Source: an uncultured Candidatus Bathyarchaeia archaeon (GTDB lineage Archaea > Thermoproteota > Bathyarchaeia > 40CM-2-53-6). From it: a stretch of 64,000 nucleotides of DNA. Made by a program: the position numbers and the translations under genes. Positions 346 to 42,578 of this stretch are shown here, in pieces (the stretch's first letter is position 1; every line of letters begins with the position of its first letter). The notes under the pieces are model-generated. The model searched no databases. It had not been told where the DNA came from and saw only the letters and a list, made by a program, of their open reading frames with translations. The stretch lies in contig CAZRDM010000006.1 in assembly GCA_964598845.1 (NCBI GenBank), positions 38,049-102,048 of the forward strand. Reading direction: 5' to 3'.

Positions 346-1467
346 GTGGAAATGACTTCTGATGAAAGTAGGAAGCGCTCGTACAGTGTCCGGCTTGGAA
401 GACTAGCGTCGGCCATCCGTGAAAGCGGCCTTGATGGGATCGTTCTAGTTCCTGGACCCAACCTCAGATACTATACGGGCGTGAACTCGCTACTCTTGGA
501 GAGACCGTTTCTCTTCCTCTTACCGAAAGAGGGACAATCACATCTCCTCGCGCCGAAACTCGAATCAGGACCGTATCGAAGAGGCCCGATCCAAATGATG
601 ATCCACGACTGGACTGATTCTGAGGGACCGTCCCGAACCTTCGAGGAGCTTACGCAACATGTTTCGATCAAAGGGAAGTGGGGACTAGAAGGGAGAGTCC
701 CGTTTCGGTTCGTACACATCCTCCTGAAGTATGCTCACCCGGACTTGGAAGATGCGGAGCCCTTGCTGGGAAGAATCAGAGAGACCAAAGATCCTGAGGA
801 GATGCGCTATCTTCAACAAGCTGCATTGATTTTGTGCAGATCGCTCCTGAGATTCCCGAACATGATCAGACCTGGGATGACGGAACTGCAACTGGCGAGA
901 GAGTTGATGGAGGAAATCTACTCGAATGGCGCGGAGCACGTTGATGAGGTTCTGATTCAGTCTGGTAGAATGGCGGCAGACCCACACCACCTCCCTTCCA
1001 CTAGGAAGTTGCGACGTAAGGAAAGCATAGTCGTCGACGCTACGTGCCAGTTTGCCGGATACTACGCCGATATCACTCGAACCTTCATCCTAGGTCGCGA
1101 TGAGAACTTTGACAGCATCTACCTAAGCGTCCTTGAGGCACAAGAAGCTGCTCTCAGTACCTCAAAGGCTGGGGAGACGGTAGGAGCAGTCGATTATGCT
1201 GCGAGAAGTCGCCTCGAGCAGAATCAACTTGGTGAGTTCTTCATCCACCGCACCGGTCATGGGCTCGGCCTCGAAGTTCATGAGCTCCCCTACATAGTTC
1301 AAGATGGGAGAGAACTGCTTGAGCCAAGAATGGTTTTCACGGTAGAGCCTAGCGTTTACTTTCCAACTAAGATGGGTGTGAGGATAGAGGACGACGTTCT
1401 GGTGACTGACAGCGGCCGCAAAGTCTTGACAAGATCCCTACCGAAAGGATTGGGCTGGTGGCGTTAG
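346..1467 (+). CDS. M24 family Xaa-Pro aminopeptidase / prolidase
   Basis: 373 aa ORF with the M24 metal-binding signature HRTGHGLGLEVHE, a creatinase/prolidase N-terminal-like region and a C-terminal E..E pair. Confidence 0.8.
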   Translation: MEMTSDESRKRSYSVRLGRLASAIRESGLDGIVLVPGPNLRYYTGVNSLLLERPFLFLLPKEGQSHLLAPKLESGPYRRGPIQMMIHDWTDSEGPSRTFEELTQHVSIKGKWGLEGRVPFRFVHILLKYAHPDLEDAEPLLGRIRETKDPEEMRYLQQAALILCRSLLRFPNMIRPGMTELQLARELMEEIYSNGAEHVDEVLIQSGRMAADPHHLPSTRKLRRKESIVVDATCQFAGYYADITRTFILGRDENFDSIYLSVLEAQEAALSTSKAGETVGAVDYAARSRLEQNQLGEFFIHRTGHGLGLEVHELPYIVQDGRELLEPRMVFTVEPSVYFPTKMGVRIEDDVLVTDSGRKVLTRSLPKGLGWWR

Positions 1468-11483: not shown

Positions 11484-11562
11484 GGGGGCGTGGTCTAGCA
11501 TGGTCTAAGATTCTCGGCTTGGGCCCGAGAGGTCGCTGGTTCAAATCCGGCCGCCCCCACCA
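11484..11562 (+). tRNA. tRNA-Pro (anticodon UGG), intron-less, CCA encoded
   Basis: manual fold: acceptor GGGGGCG/CGCCCCC, D-stem GUCU/AGAU, anticodon stem CUCGG/CCGAG with loop CUUGGGC (UGG, G37), T-arm GCUGG-UUCAAAU-CCGGC, discriminator A, then CCA. Confidence 0.85.
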
Positions 11563-22369: not shown

Positions 22370-22487
22370 TGGAGCCTCGGGCGGGCTTCGAACCCGCGAC
22401 CTGCCGCTCTCTAGGAATGTTCCTACAAGGCGGCTGCTCTCCGTTGCCTAAGTGGAATCTGCATCTACCAGGCTGAGCCACCGAGGC
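22370..22487 (-). tRNA. tRNA-Thr (anticodon UGU) with two introns (D-loop about 26 nt; anticodon loop about 15 nt at 37/38)
   Basis: reverse-complement fold: acceptor GCCUCGG/CCGAGGC, D-arm GCUC-AGCCUGGUA-GAGC only after removing a 26 nt insert, anticodon stem GCCGC/GCGGC with loop CUUGUAA after removing GGAACAUUCCUAGAG, V AGGUC, T-arm GCGGG-UUCGAAG-CCCGC, discriminator U, CCA encoded. Confidence 0.7.
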
Positions 22488-23876: not shown

Positions 23877-23983
23877 GCCGGGGTGGCTCAGCTGGTAGAG
23901 CGCCAGCCAGGCTAAAGGGGCGAAACTCATAATCTGGAGAGCATTGGGCCCAGAAGCCGCGGGTTCGATCCCCGCCCCCGGCA
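23877..23983 (+). tRNA. intron-containing tRNA, probably elongator tRNA-Met (CAU) with two non-canonical introns
   Basis: acceptor GCCGGGG/CCCCGGC, D-arm GCUC-AGCUGGUA-GAGC, T-arm GCGGG-UUCGAUC-CCCGC, discriminator A. An anticodon-loop-like CUCAUAA is flanked by CCAG(A)/UCUGG only after excising about 17 nt from the anticodon stem and about 16 nt from the variable region. The 107 nt length means about 33 nt of intron. Confidence 0.55.
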
Positions 23984-37808: not shown

Positions 37809-38330
37809 TCAGACCTTTCGAGAAAGTAGAGTCACGATTGCAGCCCCGTATACAAACGAATCTGCCAAGATTTCCAGGCCATGAAAAATCCTCAGCGGGA
37901 CAGGTGATGGGAGGATTTCGAGAGGGCTCAGCAGGAAAGGGATCAGGGTGCCTAGAACATACAGAAGAGTGACTACGCGAAAATAGGGATACCTGTTCCG
38001 GATTTTTAGGATGGCGAGTAGTGGCAGTAGCGCTAAGACGTAGAGAAAGCCTCGAACGATCTCGAGAGGAAGAATGACATTGAAACTTGGAATAGCAAGA
38101 CCCAGAGAGAAGTTCGTGTGGTAGGGGATGACGAAGGGACTCACCAACGCACCGAAAGTGAAGTAAATCGGAGAATAGATGAGTGAGCCCAAACCCATTC
38201 GTAAAATCCACAATCGGCCTCTCCTTTGTGCTAAGTACTGCTCGACTTCGATGAAGAATGATTTGCAGGCAAGGTTAGATGTCTTCACCCGTCTTTTGGC
38301 GGAGTATGCGGTTCCATTCGGCGATTTCAT
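37809..38330 (-). CDS. membrane protein
   Basis: 173 aa with 5 TM helices. Confidence 0.4.
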   Translation of the reverse strand: MKSPNGTAYSAKRRVKTSNLACKSFFIEVEQYLAQRRGRLWILRMGLGSLIYSPIYFTFGALVSPFVIPYHTNFSLGLAIPSFNVILPLEIVRGFLYVLALLPLLAILKIRNRYPYFRVVTLLYVLGTLIPFLLSPLEILPSPVPLRIFHGLEILADSFVYGAAIVTLLSRKV

Positions 38331-38769
38331 ACTGGTCGGTTCGATAGTCGCTTCTGTAGGGTTTGATATCTAAGACGGGGGTTCCGTCGAAGCAGTCGAG
38401 TCCTTGGACGACCAGCTTCCCCTTCTCTCTCCGATTTAGCTTGACCAAGCTTAGCCCGATCGGGTTAGGTCTGGTCGGTGAGTCGATGGCGAAGACTCCA
38501 ACGAGAGGCAGATCCTCAAGCTTGAATCCCCTCCTCAAGAGCCGACGCGGCCTAACCTTCAACGCTCCGACTTGCTCAGGCCTCAGTTTGTGCAGATATG
38601 TCAGAACAAAGATGTGTGAGAAACCTTCTATTCCATCCAGTCCTTCTTGGTACTCTGGAAAGACCTCTACACTCGCTTCCAATTCACAACTAGCCTCTCT
38701 TATCTCGTCGTCAGAGGCATGAGTTCTGACTACGCCTATGGAACGAAAGGTCACCTCTACGCTGCTCAT
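38275..38769 (-). CDS. TsaA/YaeB/TrmO-family tRNA (adenine37-N6)-methyltransferase
   Basis: conserved RPNPIGLSLVKL ... GLDCFDGTPVLDIKPY. The start is placed at the MSSVEVTFRSIGVV Met. Confidence 0.75.
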   Translation of the reverse strand: MSSVEVTFRSIGVVRTHASDDEIREASCELEASVEVFPEYQEGLDGIEGFSHIFVLTYLHKLRPEQVGALKVRPRRLLRRGFKLEDLPLVGVFAIDSPTRPNPIGLSLVKLNRREKGKLVVQGLDCFDGTPVLDIKPYRSDYRTDQYEIAEWNRILRQKTGEDI

Positions 38770-39409
38770 TTCGTCGTCCCTTTGATTAATCCCCAGTAAA
38801 TACTGACCGCTTGAAGAAAAGCATCTTCCAATCTGCCGCAACGTAGTACACAGCAGTTCTCGACCTTCTTGGTCAGTACCGAGACGGAGAGGTTTAAGGA
38901 GGACCAGTTTAAGGTCTGCACCTAGGACTCATTCTTTCAAGGGAAACTGAGGTAGAACATGTCGCCCTCTCTGTCATACTGACTATCAGTTTTCTCCTTT
39001 CCAATCTACAGGCGACCTCTTTATCATGTCTGTGAAGTAGTTCGTAACAATAGACCCTTCTTGATCCGGGTCCTTGATAACGACAGCGAGGTACTTGGGG
39101 CTCCTTGGCGTAGATTCGTAGAATCTGCAAAGAACGCGAATGTCGGGGGCTCCGCCTGCTGTAGCAACGTCTTTCTTGGCGAGCGTCCCCCATCAGCCAA
39201 GACCTCTGGATGAGTCTGATCCGCTTGTCGTCGTAAGGGAGCCTCTCCCAAACAATACTCAAGTTGCTTCCTCCTCCAAAAGTGAGAACCCTGATAATAT
39301 GAAGGCAAAGTCCCTTTAGGAAATTGGTTTCTTGGAGGTCTCTCTCGTGAGATTCCGAGCAGCAACCATTCTGTTGCTGAAATCGAAAATCCGTTTAAGC
39401 GGCTATGTT

Positions 39410-39541
39410 TGGAGCCCCGGGCGGGACTTTCAGCGAATGAAAGTTCGCTTTTGAACCCGCGGCCTTCGCCTTTTCGTTGTCCAGTTACCAAGGCGGCGCT
39501 TTTGGCGTTCTATTGAATCTACCAGGCTGAGCCACCGGGGC
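39410..39541 (-). tRNA. tRNA-Thr (anticodon GGU) with three introns (D-loop, anticodon loop, T-loop)
   Basis: reverse-complement fold: acceptor GCCCCGG/CCGGGGC, D-arm GCUC-AGCCUGGUA-GAGC after removing 18 nt, anticodon stem CCGCC/GGCGA (one mismatch) with loop UUGGUAA after removing about 16 nt, T-arm GCGGG-UUCAAAU-CCCGC after removing a 23 nt hairpin-forming insert (AGCGAA..UUCGCU), discriminator U, CCA encoded. The ORF-track entries 38909-39491 are artefacts over this gene. Confidence 0.65.
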
Positions 39542-40200
39542 GGAGGAACTGAATCCAGCGGTGGAGCGCTAATTAACCTTGACCCCGGGTATTCGTCATT
39601 AGGTCGGGGAATTATTCGGTGCGGTGAATCTCTGATAGTATGCTTCGGGACATGAGCTCCTCAATCAGATCACTTCGCCTCGCCCCAGATCCCGTTCTCA
39701 GAAGCGGGACAGCTATGTGAGGACTAGGATTGATGTTCTTCAGGATCAAGATTCGTGTACATCGATTCTCTTGGAGATATCTGTGCATTGTGCAAGTTGG
39801 TTACACAGAATTGCGGGAGGTAGTTGCTGGATTGCTTTCGCTCTCAGAGGATCGATCGCGGCAAGAACCAAGCAGCAGAATTGTTCCATTAAGGCTGCCC
39901 TGAGCCTTGCTCCTTTCCATTAGTAAAAAATGCTTATTAGTGGTCATCCCGAGTCCTTTGATGGATCGTTGAACGAAAGGGTTCCGATACGCGTAGTACT
40001 GGTCCTGAGACGGCCCTTGCTATCTCTTTGTCAATGCTAGGCTTGAAAATTCGCTTGGAATGGCATTTTGACATCGCGTGATATTTTTGCGCTGAAAAAT
40101 GGTATAATTCGACTTTTACCAATCACCAATGTGATAACACTTGACCAAATGCTTAAGAGCGCTCCTAAGGGCAACCCTGTTTCCGTGTTAAATCACTCAA

Positions 40201-40218: not shown

Positions 40219-40986
40219 ATGGTCAAGAGATGCCCATCATGCGGCTACAATAACCGCGACGATGCAGCATTCTGTTCAAGTTGCGGCGCCTCACTTGTAG
40301 GCGCAGTGCCCCCCACACTGAAGCCAGTCCCATCAGTTCGAGTTGTGACGCCAGTTGCACCAGGCGGACCGATTAGGGTTCCACCACCGGGACAGTGCTT
40401 CTATCACCCGAACTTGCCGGCGGTCTATGTCTGCAACCGCTGTGGAAGAGCGATCTGCCGAGACGATTCGAAGGCATACATGGACTTGGTCCTCTGTCCT
40501 CAGTGTTATGCTGGTGTAGTGCCTGTGGTTGCCCCACCAGTACAAGTTCCGGCACCAGCATATGCCCCACCGCCAATGCCAGCCGCACCGGCACCAGCAA
40601 TCATGGCCCCGTATCCACCGCCTTTTGTTGCACCAGCAGCCCCAAGAGCCCTCTGGGGATTCATACTCTCAATGATAGCTGGAATCCTCGTGATCCTTAA
40701 CGCTGCTGCATTGCTCTCGAGCCCATTCTACACCTTGTGGTCAGGTGTATTCTTCTGGTTACCAGTCATCGATCCTTCACCAACTCACGGCCTAGTCTTC
40801 GCTATCGGTGCAATAATCGGACTCATCCTAGTAATCGGGTCGATACTCATGTTACTTGGATACGGTACTATTGGAAGCATAGTCGTCTTCCCGCTGGCGG
40901 TTCTGAGTCTGATTATTGGCGGAGGTTTTGTGGCCGGCTTCGTTCTCGGCGTGTTGGGCGGAATTCTCGGCATGCTGGGAAGGTAA
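40219..40986 (+). CDS. membrane-anchored zinc-ribbon + B-box/RING-like zinc-finger protein (candidate small E3-like factor)
   Basis: N-terminal zinc ribbon CPSCGY-x10-CSSCG; second module C-x2-H-x8-C-x2-C-x4-C-x12-C-x2-C (CFYHP..CNRCGRAIC..CPQC); a Pro/Ala-rich linker, then 3-4 TM helices. Confidence 0.6.
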   Translation: MVKRCPSCGYNNRDDAAFCSSCGASLVGAVPPTLKPVPSVRVVTPVAPGGPIRVPPPGQCFYHPNLPAVYVCNRCGRAICRDDSKAYMDLVLCPQCYAGVVPVVAPPVQVPAPAYAPPPMPAAPAPAIMAPYPPPFVAPAAPRALWGFILSMIAGILVILNAAALLSSPFYTLWSGVFFWLPVIDPSPTHGLVFAIGAIIGLILVIGSILMLLGYGTIGSIVVFPLAVLSLIIGGGFVAGFVLGVLGGILGMLGR

Positions 40987-41030
40987 CGCGCTCAACAAGG
41001 TCCCCGATTTTTTATTTTCCTTCGATTTTG

Positions 41031-42578
41031 GTGTGGCCTGTGTCCTATGTTAGCATCTGGAAGCCTGTCAACGACCGTATTGTTCAGGCTTCACGTGAAA
41101 CCGGAAATGAGATCATAGGACTGCTCCTCGGCAAACTCGAAGATGATACGATAATCATCGAAGACTCGATTACGGGCGATTACTTCGCGGAAGAGCATCG
41201 AGTGACTCTGCCTGCAGCAACACTCGCAAAGATTGCAGACGGCATAGTCACTGGGCGAATCAAAGGCAACATTGTGGGCTGGTATCACTCACACACTAAA
41301 GACGGACTCTTCTTCTCGGAGACCGACATTCAAACCCAGAAGCAACTGCAACAGTTTTCGTCCCTCGTCACCGGAATGGTTGTGGACGCCAACACGGGAG
41401 AGGTCGGATACTACAGAATCGACCCGCAGACTGCCAATTCCATCCGTTTATCCGATGATAGGGTTCGGATCTACAAGGAGGCGAGTGAGGCGATTCCTTC
41501 AAGAGTGATAGCGAGAACCCGGGTTCGTCCCACTCCAACCATTGAAATTCGCGAGCACGCGACCCAGCGGGGAACTCCGACTCGGAAAGTGGTTATCGGA
41601 ACGGTCTTGATAACACTCGCAGCGTCCGCAATACTTCTCGGCGCGTTGTTCCTCAGGGGCCCTACAGAGGCAGAGAAACTAAACGTAATCCTTGCGCCTG
41701 TCTCAAGCGCCACGGTTGGAACGCCCATTGAGATCAAAGCCAATGTTACGGGTCAGGTTCGCAATGTAACCCTAGTCTACGCTACTTCGGGTGCTTCATT
41801 CAAATCGATGGACATCAGTCCGCGCTTACCCGGCGAGTATGCCTACGTAATATCGGGCCAAGAAGTTACAGGGAACATCGCCTACTACATCAAAGCAATC
41901 GACACTTCTGGCAACGTGGTTCGTACGGATCTGATGCACATTCCAGTTTCAGACTACCTGATCGTCGCGAGGACGGCGGAACTGACAGTTTACAGGAACC
42001 GATCTGCCACAGCCCACCTCGCCTTGCTCCCAATAAACGGTTTCAGCCAATCAGTGACTCTAAGCGCGTCAGCACCCCAAGGACTCACTTTGACGTTTAC
42101 TCCGAACCCAGTCCTCGGCGGAACGCTAGAGCTCACGATGAATGCTGTAGCCAGCGACGACATGCCGAATGGCACCTTCCCTCTTTCCATAACTGCCACC
42201 TACTCTCCCCCCGAGGCTCCGCGGGTAACCCGTCAAACAACAATCGCCATCACAATAGCAGACTTCGATCTGCAGGCTTCTCCGACCTCAAAACAAGTCT
42301 CAAGGGGAACCACATCCGTCGCCTACACCTTGACCCTAACAATACAACAAGGCTTCGTAGATCCCATTACGGTCACCGTTTCGGGAATCCCACCCGGCGC
42401 AAGATATCAGTTGACAACCACAAGTACGACGATGTTGGCTAGCGGCGCAGGCTCAAGGACGATAATGCTCCAAATCACGTTAACCCCAAGCGTCAAGCTC
42501 GGAAACTATACTTTATCCATAAGTGCAACAGGTGGAACCATCGTCCATACTGAAACTGTGGAACTCATAGTAAGATAG
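41031..42578 (+). CDS. JAMM/MPN+ (Rpn11/Mov34-type) metalloprotease fused to a TM helix and a long extracytoplasmic beta-rich (Ig-like repeat) domain
   Basis: JAMM motif E..GLLLG ... GWYHSHTKDGLFFSETD (ExnHxHx7Sx2D). The start is placed at the GTG/TTG at 41028-41031 because the 5' part of ORF 40737-42578 overlaps the upstream gene. A TM segment lies near residue 290 and is followed by about 300 aa of Thr/Ser-rich beta repeats. Confidence 0.8.
   Translation: MWPVSYVSIWKPVNDRIVQASRETGNEIIGLLLGKLEDDTIIIEDSITGDYFAEEHRVTLPAATLAKIADGIVTGRIKGNIVGWYHSHTKDGLFFSETDIQTQKQLQQFSSLVTGMVVDANTGEVGYYRIDPQTANSIRLSDDRVRIYKEASEAIPSRVIARTRVRPTPTIEIREHATQRGTPTRKVVIGTVLITLAASAILLGALFLRGPTEAEKLNVILAPVSSATVGTPIEIKANVTGQVRNVTLVYATSGASFKSMDISPRLPGEYAYVISGQEVTGNIAYYIKAIDTSGNVVRTDLMHIPVSDYLIVARTAELTVYRNRSATAHLALLPINGFSQSVTLSASAPQGLTLTFTPNPVLGGTLELTMNAVASDDMPNGTFPLSITATYSPPEAPRVTRQTTIAITIADFDLQASPTSKQVSRGTTSVAYTLTLTIQQGFVDPITVTVSGIPPGARYQLTTTSTTMLASGAGSRTIMLQITLTPSVKLGNYTLSISATGGTIVHTETVELIVR

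Follow-up and report, generated by a model that had tools for sequence, protein, structure and literature searches.

A chromosomal tRNA-Thr(GGU) gene of an uncultured Bathyarchaeia archaeon with introns in the D-arm, the anticodon loop and the T-loop

Introns of archaeal tRNA genes are short, ranging from 11 to 129 nt with medians of 12-25 nt (PMC4090602), and three per tRNA is the stated maximum (PMC8450103). The intron-richest genomes are those of Pyrobaculum and Thermofilum, with Thaumarchaeota, Korarchaeota and Aigarchaeota also affected (PMC8450103, PMC3218864, PMC4033280); three-intron examples include tRNA-Glu(UUC) of P. calidifontis and tRNA-Pro(UGG) of P. islandicum (PMC4390854). Known intron positions include D-loops, T-loops, the variable region and the acceptor stem (PMC3241643). 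The splice sites follow the bulge-helix-bulge (BHB) rule, under which a 4-bp central helix is flanked by two 3-nt bulges and, in a canonical intron, holds the first two anticodon nucleotides inside the helix (PMC4090602). The strict motif is designated hBHBh', and the relaxed forms HBh', hBH and BHL; cleavage of relaxed motifs is a property of the (alpha-beta)2 and epsilon2 endonucleases (PMC4033280, PMC3241643, PMC5829648).

The gene described here lies in a window of 64,000 nucleotides (the whole stretch of DNA that was analysed) from an uncultured Bathyarchaeia archaeon, and it has introns at positions 22/23, 37/38 and 59/60. The three-intron tRNA genes of Thermoproteales (cited in PMC4033280) resemble it in having three short BHB introns at 37/38 and at non-canonical sites, with strict and relaxed motifs side by side. 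They differ in that they belong to cultured hyperthermophiles, whereas the window gene comes from Bathyarchaeia MAGs of 51% G+C and represents another isoacceptor and probably another combination of sites. The nuclear tRNA-Ile(UAU) of Cyanidioschyzon merolae, with introns in the D-arm (12/13), the anticodon loop (37/38) and the T-arm (53/54), shares the arrangement of one intron per arm, but is eukaryotic, is processed by another endonuclease complex, and differs in exact positions and isoacceptor (PMC9602550). Its T-arm intron blocks Psi55 formation by Pus4 until removal (PMC9602550), which by analogy suggests that a comparable order of splicing and modification may apply to the window tRNA-Thr(GGU).

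Among Thr tRNAs, a comparable case is tRNA-Thr(GGU) of Caldiarchaeum subterraneum (Aigarchaeota), which has introns at 24/25 and 45/46 that are polymorphic in the population (PMC3293823). The isoacceptor, the related TACK lineage, the D-arm intron, and the presence and absence of introns among close relatives are common to both; the Caldiarchaeum gene, unlike ours, has two introns at different sites, and its D-arm intron is tied to a mobile insertion of 1.8 kb that codes for a recombinase (PMC3293823); a Pfam scan of seven ORFs flanking the window gene found nothing of the kind. Aeropyrum pernix has a 37/38 intron in tRNA-Thr(CGU) and a D-loop intron in tRNA-Thr(UGU), so that D-loop and canonical introns in Thr isoacceptors are seen in both organisms, but each A. 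pernix gene has one intron and its tRNA-Thr(GGU) has none (PMC3241643). The A. pernix Thr introns are spliced in vivo and by APE-EndA in vitro, which proves by experiment that introns of this type can be taken out by an (alpha-beta)2 EndA (PMC3241643). The window gene thus belongs to an established class, within which it reaches the documented ceiling of three introns, and the lineage is what is new: we found no description of multi-intron tRNAs in Bathyarchaeia in the literature searched. The remark in an earlier note on this DNA that such a gene is unusual even among intron-rich archaea was overstated, as both three-intron genes and D- and T-loop sites have been published (PMC8450103, PMC4033280, PMC4390854, PMC3241643).

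The gene occupies 132 nt of the minus strand, from 39541 to 39410, and encodes its CCA end (39412-39410). Read from 39541 down to 39410, it consists of seven consecutive parts, the lower-case ones being the three inserts: GCCCCGGUGGCUCAGCCUGGUAG, auucaauagaacgccaaa, AGCGCCGCCUUGGUA, acuggacaacgaaa, AGGCGAAGGCCGCGGGUUCAAA, agcgaacuuucauucgcugaaag and UCCCGCCCGGGGCUCCA. The exons and introns are as follows.

39519..39541, minus strand: exon 1, tRNA positions 1-22, with GCCCCGG (acceptor 5' strand), U8 G9, GCUC (D-stem 5' strand), the D-loop AGCCUGGUA, and G22
39501..39518, minus strand: intron 1, 18 nt, AUUCAAUAGAACGCCAAA, between G22 and A23 in the 3' strand of the D-stem
39486..39500, minus strand: exon 2, positions 23-37, with AGC, G26, CCGCC (anticodon stem 5' strand), U32 U33, GGU, and A37
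39472..39485, minus strand: intron 2, 14 nt, ACUGGACAACGAAA, at the canonical site 37/38
39450..39471, minus strand: exon 3, positions 38-59, with A38, GGCGA (anticodon stem 3' strand), the variable loop AGGCC, GCGGG (T-stem 5' strand), and UUCAAA (part of the T-loop)
39427..39449, minus strand: intron 3, 23 nt, AGCGAACUUUCAUUCGCUGAAAG, between A59 and U60 in the T-loop
39410..39426, minus strand: exon 4, positions 60-76, with U60, CCCGC (T-stem 3' strand), CCGGGGC (acceptor 3' strand), U73, and CCA

When the three inserts are deleted, ARAGORN recognizes the joined exons as a perfect 77-nt cloverleaf of tRNA-Thr(GGU), with an acceptor stem of 7 bp, a D-stem of 4 bp, a T-stem of 5 bp, the T-loop UUCAAAU, discriminator U73, and encoded CCA. 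The arms are GCUC-AGCCUGGUA-GAGC (D), CCGCC-UUGGUAA-GGCGA (anticodon) and GCGGG-UUCAAAU-CCCGC (T). The earlier note had quoted all three arm sequences correctly and had placed a 132-nt tRNA-Thr(GGU) gene at exactly these limits, to which the strand has to be added; its insert lengths of about 18, 16 and 23 nt are right for the first and the third insert, the anticodon-loop insert being 14 nt. The assignment to tRNA-Thr relies on the GGU anticodon in a class I cloverleaf and on exons that are 95% identical to tRNA-Thr(GGU) of Thermococcus (locus L038, see below). The gene also has G1-C72, C2-G71 and U73, which we take to be the archaeal Thr identity elements. The G+C content of the spliced tRNA is 71%, against a window average of about 51%. 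The four exons are collinear within 132 nt, which sets the gene apart from split and circularly permuted tRNA genes.

The unspliced gene is called neither by ARAGORN in the whole window nor by the Rfam tRNA model, and remains undetected by the latter at E<=10 in a 600-nt sub-window. No better reading of the unspliced region as a single-intron or intron-less tRNA, an outcome that the earlier note had named as one to look for, was obtained from ARAGORN (with or without the -i option) or from Rfam at E<=10. The mature tRNA has a single flaw, the uppermost position of the anticodon stem being mismatched (C27/A43). The lack of a call by standard detectors, this mismatch, and the weak BHB motif in the anticodon loop (see below) would fit a decaying pseudogene, or the remnant of an integration target, that has received three unrelated insertions and is no longer functional. 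A different objection is that three freely chosen deletions could push many sequences towards a cloverleaf, so that the one obtained here might be a construction of chance. Comparison with orthologous genes bears on both of these readings.

We scanned the GTDB representatives (one genome per species) with the 23-nt 5' exon of tRNA-Thr(GGU), and obtained 59 loci (designated L001-type numbers below), nearly all of them in Bathyarchaeia/Bathyarchaeota MAGs; small numbers belong to Hadesarchaea, Altiarchaeales and Thermococcus, or to bins that bear a bacterial label. No GTDB representative comes nearer than about 80% nucleotide identity to the source of the window, which is therefore a Bathyarchaeia lineage without a close reference genome. 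From these loci, 50 Thr(GGU) orthologues were parsed. Each of the three introns is either precisely present or precisely absent in them, and the orthologues span the states of zero, one, two and three introns, which fixes the intron positions at 22/23, 37/38 and 59/60. The Thermococcus gene (L038) has contiguous exons and none of the three introns, and the sequence of the Altiarchaeales gene (L009), judged by eye, shows the same. The 22/23 intron is present in every Bathyarchaeia orthologue, while the 37/38 intron is missing from seven Bathyarchaeia loci (L004, L036, L040, L042, L043, L049, L050), with the exons joined as predicted. Among the parsed orthologues, the 59/60 intron is confined to the window gene and to L004, L039, L043, L049, L050, L051, L052, L056 and L058; the window gene and five other loci (L039, L051, L052, L056, L058) have the complete set of three.

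The deletions that give the cloverleaf thus match naturally intron-less states of orthologues to the nucleotide, and the intron-less Thermococcus gene, with 95% identity to the joined exons, reaches 70 bits with the Rfam tRNA model; a cloverleaf produced by choice of deletions has, in our estimate, a next to negligible probability. The Rfam score drops with the number of introns, from those 70 bits to 50 bits in the one-intron gene of L036; a single one of the 18 loci holding a two-intron orthologue is detected, and the three-intron genes of L051, L058 and the window are not. With regard to decay, the 50 orthologues have intact exons, at 86-100% identity to the window gene (exon 1 does not vary among the 59 loci, since it served as the search pattern), whereas introns 1 and 2 have diverged to 32-78% identity. 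For the T-loop intron, identity to the window gene is 91-96% in L050, L051 and L058, its three closest relatives, and 57-78% in the others. The C27/A43 mismatch recurs in orthologues, those with fewer introns included, which speaks against decay.

Several of the loci call for separate comment. Two Thr(GGU) genes are found on different contigs within one MAG in three cases (L050/L051 in CAZYOZ01, L002/L041 in CAVPLU01, and L006/L012 in VBBS01); of the CAZYOZ01 copies, one carries a D-arm and a T-loop intron only, and the other carries all three. Such pairs could represent either strain heterogeneity in a co-assembly or true duplication, and the CAZYOZ01 pair is reminiscent of the Caldiarchaeum Thr(GGU) locus with its polymorphic introns (PMC3293823). 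Archaeal-type, intron-bearing tRNA-Thr(GGU) genes occur in bins labelled as Methylomirabilota (L025), Dormiibacterota (L028), Acidoferrum (L042) and Acidiferrales (L058); all four match Bathyarchaeia orthologues, L058 has Bathyarchaeia-type neighbour genes as well, and the contigs are probably mis-binned. L022 and L034 (both Hadesarchaea) and L046 are tRNA genes with anticodon UGU that have the same 5' exon without the D-arm intron, and apparently two inserts within the anticodon arm, for example GAGCGACUGA-aguuaacugucgaa-ACUUGUAA-ccaggcgcaggaaa-UCAGU. L050 has a further tRNA gene about 1.8 kb from its Thr(GGU) gene (1022-1124, plus strand, Rfam 49.5 bits), whose length of 103 nt indicates that it contains one or more introns.

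The exact junctions were obtained by applying the BHB rule (PMC4090602), which puts each cut two nucleotides 3' of each strand of the central helix, to all three sites, and the register could be fitted at 22/23, 37/38 and 59/60. Over the distinct orthologous introns at each site, the mean number of central-helix pairs, out of four, is 3.69 at 22/23 (n=48), 3.40 at 37/38 (n=35) and 3.80 at 59/60 (n=10); in shifted registers these means do not exceed 2.77, 2.6 and 2.2, respectively. The lengths of the introns, 18, 14 and 23 nt, all fall inside the published range (PMC4090602).

The 59/60 intron has a strict hBHBh' motif. Its outer helix is the T-stem, the central helix pairs U54-U55-C56-A57 with UGAA (4/4 pairs), the inner helix is GCGAA/UUCGC (5 bp) closed by the loop CUUUCA, and the two bulges read A58-A59^A and A-G^U60 (a caret marks the junction); the sequence allows one position only, with no ambiguity. 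In the minimum free energy (MFE) fold, the AGCGAA/UUCGCU hairpin of the insert, proposed in the earlier note, is present, and the A/U-rich central helix is absent. In the alignment of ten genes with this intron, 93.6% of cells pair, against at most 48.6% when the partner strand is slid. Three pairs of the inner helix show compensatory change (GCGAA/UUCGC, GCGAU/AUCGC and GCCU/AGGC, for example), and the covariation score of the hairpin was reached by none of 500 shuffles.

The D-arm motif is near-canonical. The central helix pairs U17a-G18-G19-U20 with GCCA (4/4), the inner helix is UUC/GAA, the bulges are AG^A and AA^A, and the outer helix has only 2 bp; both the central and the inner helix appear in the MFE fold, with pair probabilities of 0.88-0.94 and a 3-nt 3' bulge. 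Two single-nucleotide irregularities, the unpaired C17 and an extra C before GCCA, keep it from being strict. Two registers in the D-arm and three in the anticodon loop yield an identical product. By hand count, a D-arm junction at 23/24 (GA^...AAAA^GC) has 0/4 central pairs against 4/4 at 22/23, and an anticodon-loop junction at 38/39 has 1/4 against 3/4 at 37/38; the test over many orthologues agrees in favouring 22/23 and 37/38. The boundaries proposed earlier for these two introns were each one nucleotide off this register, with the same spliced product. BHB geometry at the exon boundaries, whose failure the earlier note had named as grounds for refutation, holds at each of the three junctions, and orthologues bear out its specificity for the register. 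The note had also taken CUGA/UGAUGA for a BHB context, but these are C/D-box motifs: CUGA occurs as part of ...GCUGAAAG, box C is absent from the gene, and with no UGAUGA and introns of only 14-23 nt we see no intron-encoded box C/D sRNA. Another BHB-like motif, noticed by eye across exon 2 between CCAA near the 3' end of intron 1 and U32-G35, was rejected because the MFE fold lacks this pairing and no outer helix can be made from the intervening 8 nt.

The 37/38 intron has a relaxed hBH motif, in which the outer helix is the anticodon stem, the central helix UUGG/ACGA has 3/4 pairs (U32-A, U33-G and G34-C, with G35 opposite A), and an inner helix is missing. Thermodynamic folding predicts neither this motif nor the anticodon stem; GCCUU/AAGGC pairing is preferred, and the pair probability of the central helix in the predicted ensemble is at most 0.02. 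In view of this, and of the several orthologues that have lost precisely the 37/38 intron, maturation might be inefficient or regulated, with the D-arm and T-loop introns removed and the anticodon-loop insert handled differently or poorly. We consider this quite unlikely: the central helix stays in register over 35 distinct orthologous introns, in which the changes are compatible with pairing (A or G at the third position opposite U33, C or U at the second position opposite G34); relaxed hBH and BHL motifs are cut by the (alpha-beta)2 and epsilon2 endonucleases (PMC4033280, PMC3241643); and a 14-nt insert left beside the anticodon would abolish decoding. The presence of three introns, including the one in the T-loop, as the earlier note had claimed, is supported by three independent results, i.e., the spliced cloverleaf, the presence and absence of introns in orthologues, and the BHB geometry.

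Two putative signals flank the gene:

39567..39580, minus strand: BRE/TATA-like promoter box AAGGTTAATTAGCG, read from the sequence, with a predicted promoter function
39386..39402, minus strand: short terminator-like hairpin, CCG-CUUAAA-CGG, with A-UUUU after it, 8 nt past the CCA end, read from the sequence, with a predicted terminator function

The TTAATTA core of the box (39576-39570) has its centre some 32 nt upstream of tRNA position 1, and the same or a similar A/T box (AAGGTTAATTAGCG, ACATATTTAGCG, AAAGGTTAAATAGCG, CCATATAAT) is found at equal distance upstream of orthologous genes. To judge from its sequence and spacing, it may be an archaeal BRE/TATA promoter that leaves a leader of a few nucleotides. 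A zinc-ribbon gene (40219-40986) and a JAB-domain gene (40737-42578) recur beside the tRNA in 25 and 19 loci, respectively, and the neighbourhood is chromosomal and conserved. A Pfam scan of the seven flanking ORFs detected no integrase, and no EndA or RtcB either. The recurrence of the promoter box and of the neighbouring genes at orthologous loci, the absence of an integrase from these seven ORFs, the BHB register kept at the junctions, and the covarying T-loop hairpin join the intact exons in making a decaying pseudogene or integration remnant very improbable.

Some 570 nt downstream of tRNA-Thr(GGU), the same strand carries a TrmO-family gene (38275-38841, minus strand; Pfam TrmO_N, E=9e-29). 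E. coli TrmO methylates t6A37 in tRNA-Thr(GGU) and tRNA-Thr(CGU). The adjacency is probably coincidental, because it is not conserved: this gene and two other downstream ORFs gave no tblastn matches in the 59 orthologous loci.

Taking all of these lines together, we consider it highly probable that the window contains a functional chromosomal tRNA-Thr(GGU) gene with its own promoter and three protein-spliced introns. In the pathway that we infer for its transcription, cleavage by EndA and ligation, transcription from the BRE/TATA-type promoter would give a precursor of about 140 nt with all three introns. Each exon-intron pair would fold locally, with a 4-bp central helix in which the end of the exon pairs with the 3' portion of the intron, and with 3-nt bulges; EndA would then make six cuts, each two nucleotides to the 3' side of a helix strand, and the exons would be joined by an RtcB-type ligase. 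Since the three BHB motifs occupy separate parts of the molecule (D-loop, anticodon stem-loop and T-arm), they would be independent, and no order of removal would be imposed on the introns. Only after splicing would the D-stem form, along with the tertiary contacts made by the D-loop and the T-loop. The two relaxed motifs, at 22/23 and 37/38, would call for an EndA of broad specificity, such as an (alpha-beta)2, epsilon2 or Korarchaeum-type alpha2 enzyme.

A home-made scan for acceptor stems and T-arms gave only four convincing tRNA genes in the window, which together hold seven introns, counting the intron-less tRNA-Pro(UGG) at 11484-11562 among the four. tRNA-Thr(UGU), at 22370-22487 on the minus strand, is 118 nt long with encoded CCA and has introns of 26 nt at 22/23 (AUGCAGAUUCCACUUAGGCAACGGAG) and of 15 nt at 37/38 (GGAACAUUCCUAGAG); the joined exons form a 77-nt cloverleaf by ARAGORN, and the unspliced gene is mis-called as tRNA-Pro(AGG) by ARAGORN -i. 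Its exon sequences are shared with tRNA-Thr(GGU), as had been noticed earlier, and so are the 22/23 and 37/38 sites. The D-arm site 22/23 is common to Thr(GGU) and Thr(UGU) of the window and to Thr(CGU) of L003 and L044. The fourth gene (23877-23983, plus strand) is a tRNA with anticodon CAU, either elongator Met or Ile2, without encoded CCA. It has no canonical intron and two non-canonical ones, of 18 nt at 30/31 (CCAGGCUAAAGGGGCGAA; central helix CGCC/GGCG, 4/4) and of 16 nt at 45/46 (AGCAUUGGGCCCAGAA; central helix CUGG/CCAG, 4/4); the unspliced gene scores 47 bits with Rfam, and the joined exons form a 74-nt cloverleaf. The hairpin of the T-loop intron has no second copy elsewhere in the window, which thus gives no evidence of intron transposition. 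A 16-mer of this hairpin matched at least 120 loci in metagenomes, with none in a tRNA context among the matches listed, and was set aside as too short a pattern.

The mechanism and architecture of the gene are textbook for TACK archaea, and its value is practical and comparative. It is missed by detectors that do not handle non-canonical introns, ARAGORN and the Rfam tRNA model among them, so that Bathyarchaeia MAGs would seem to lack an essential isoacceptor. The series of orthologues with zero to three introns at fixed sites offers a good basis on which to test models of how tRNA introns are gained and lost. A broader reading, which we put forward tentatively and with some doubt, is that Bathyarchaeia, including lineages of 51% G+C known only from MAGs, have tRNA intron loads as high as or above those of hyperthermophilic Thermoproteales. 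If so, the 22/23 D-arm intron would be ancient, since the GGU, UGU and CGU isoacceptors of tRNA-Thr have it in common; the tRNAs of Bathyarchaeia MAGs would be undercounted by routine annotation; and the 59/60 intron, segregating among related lineages, would provide a natural series for following intron gain and loss.
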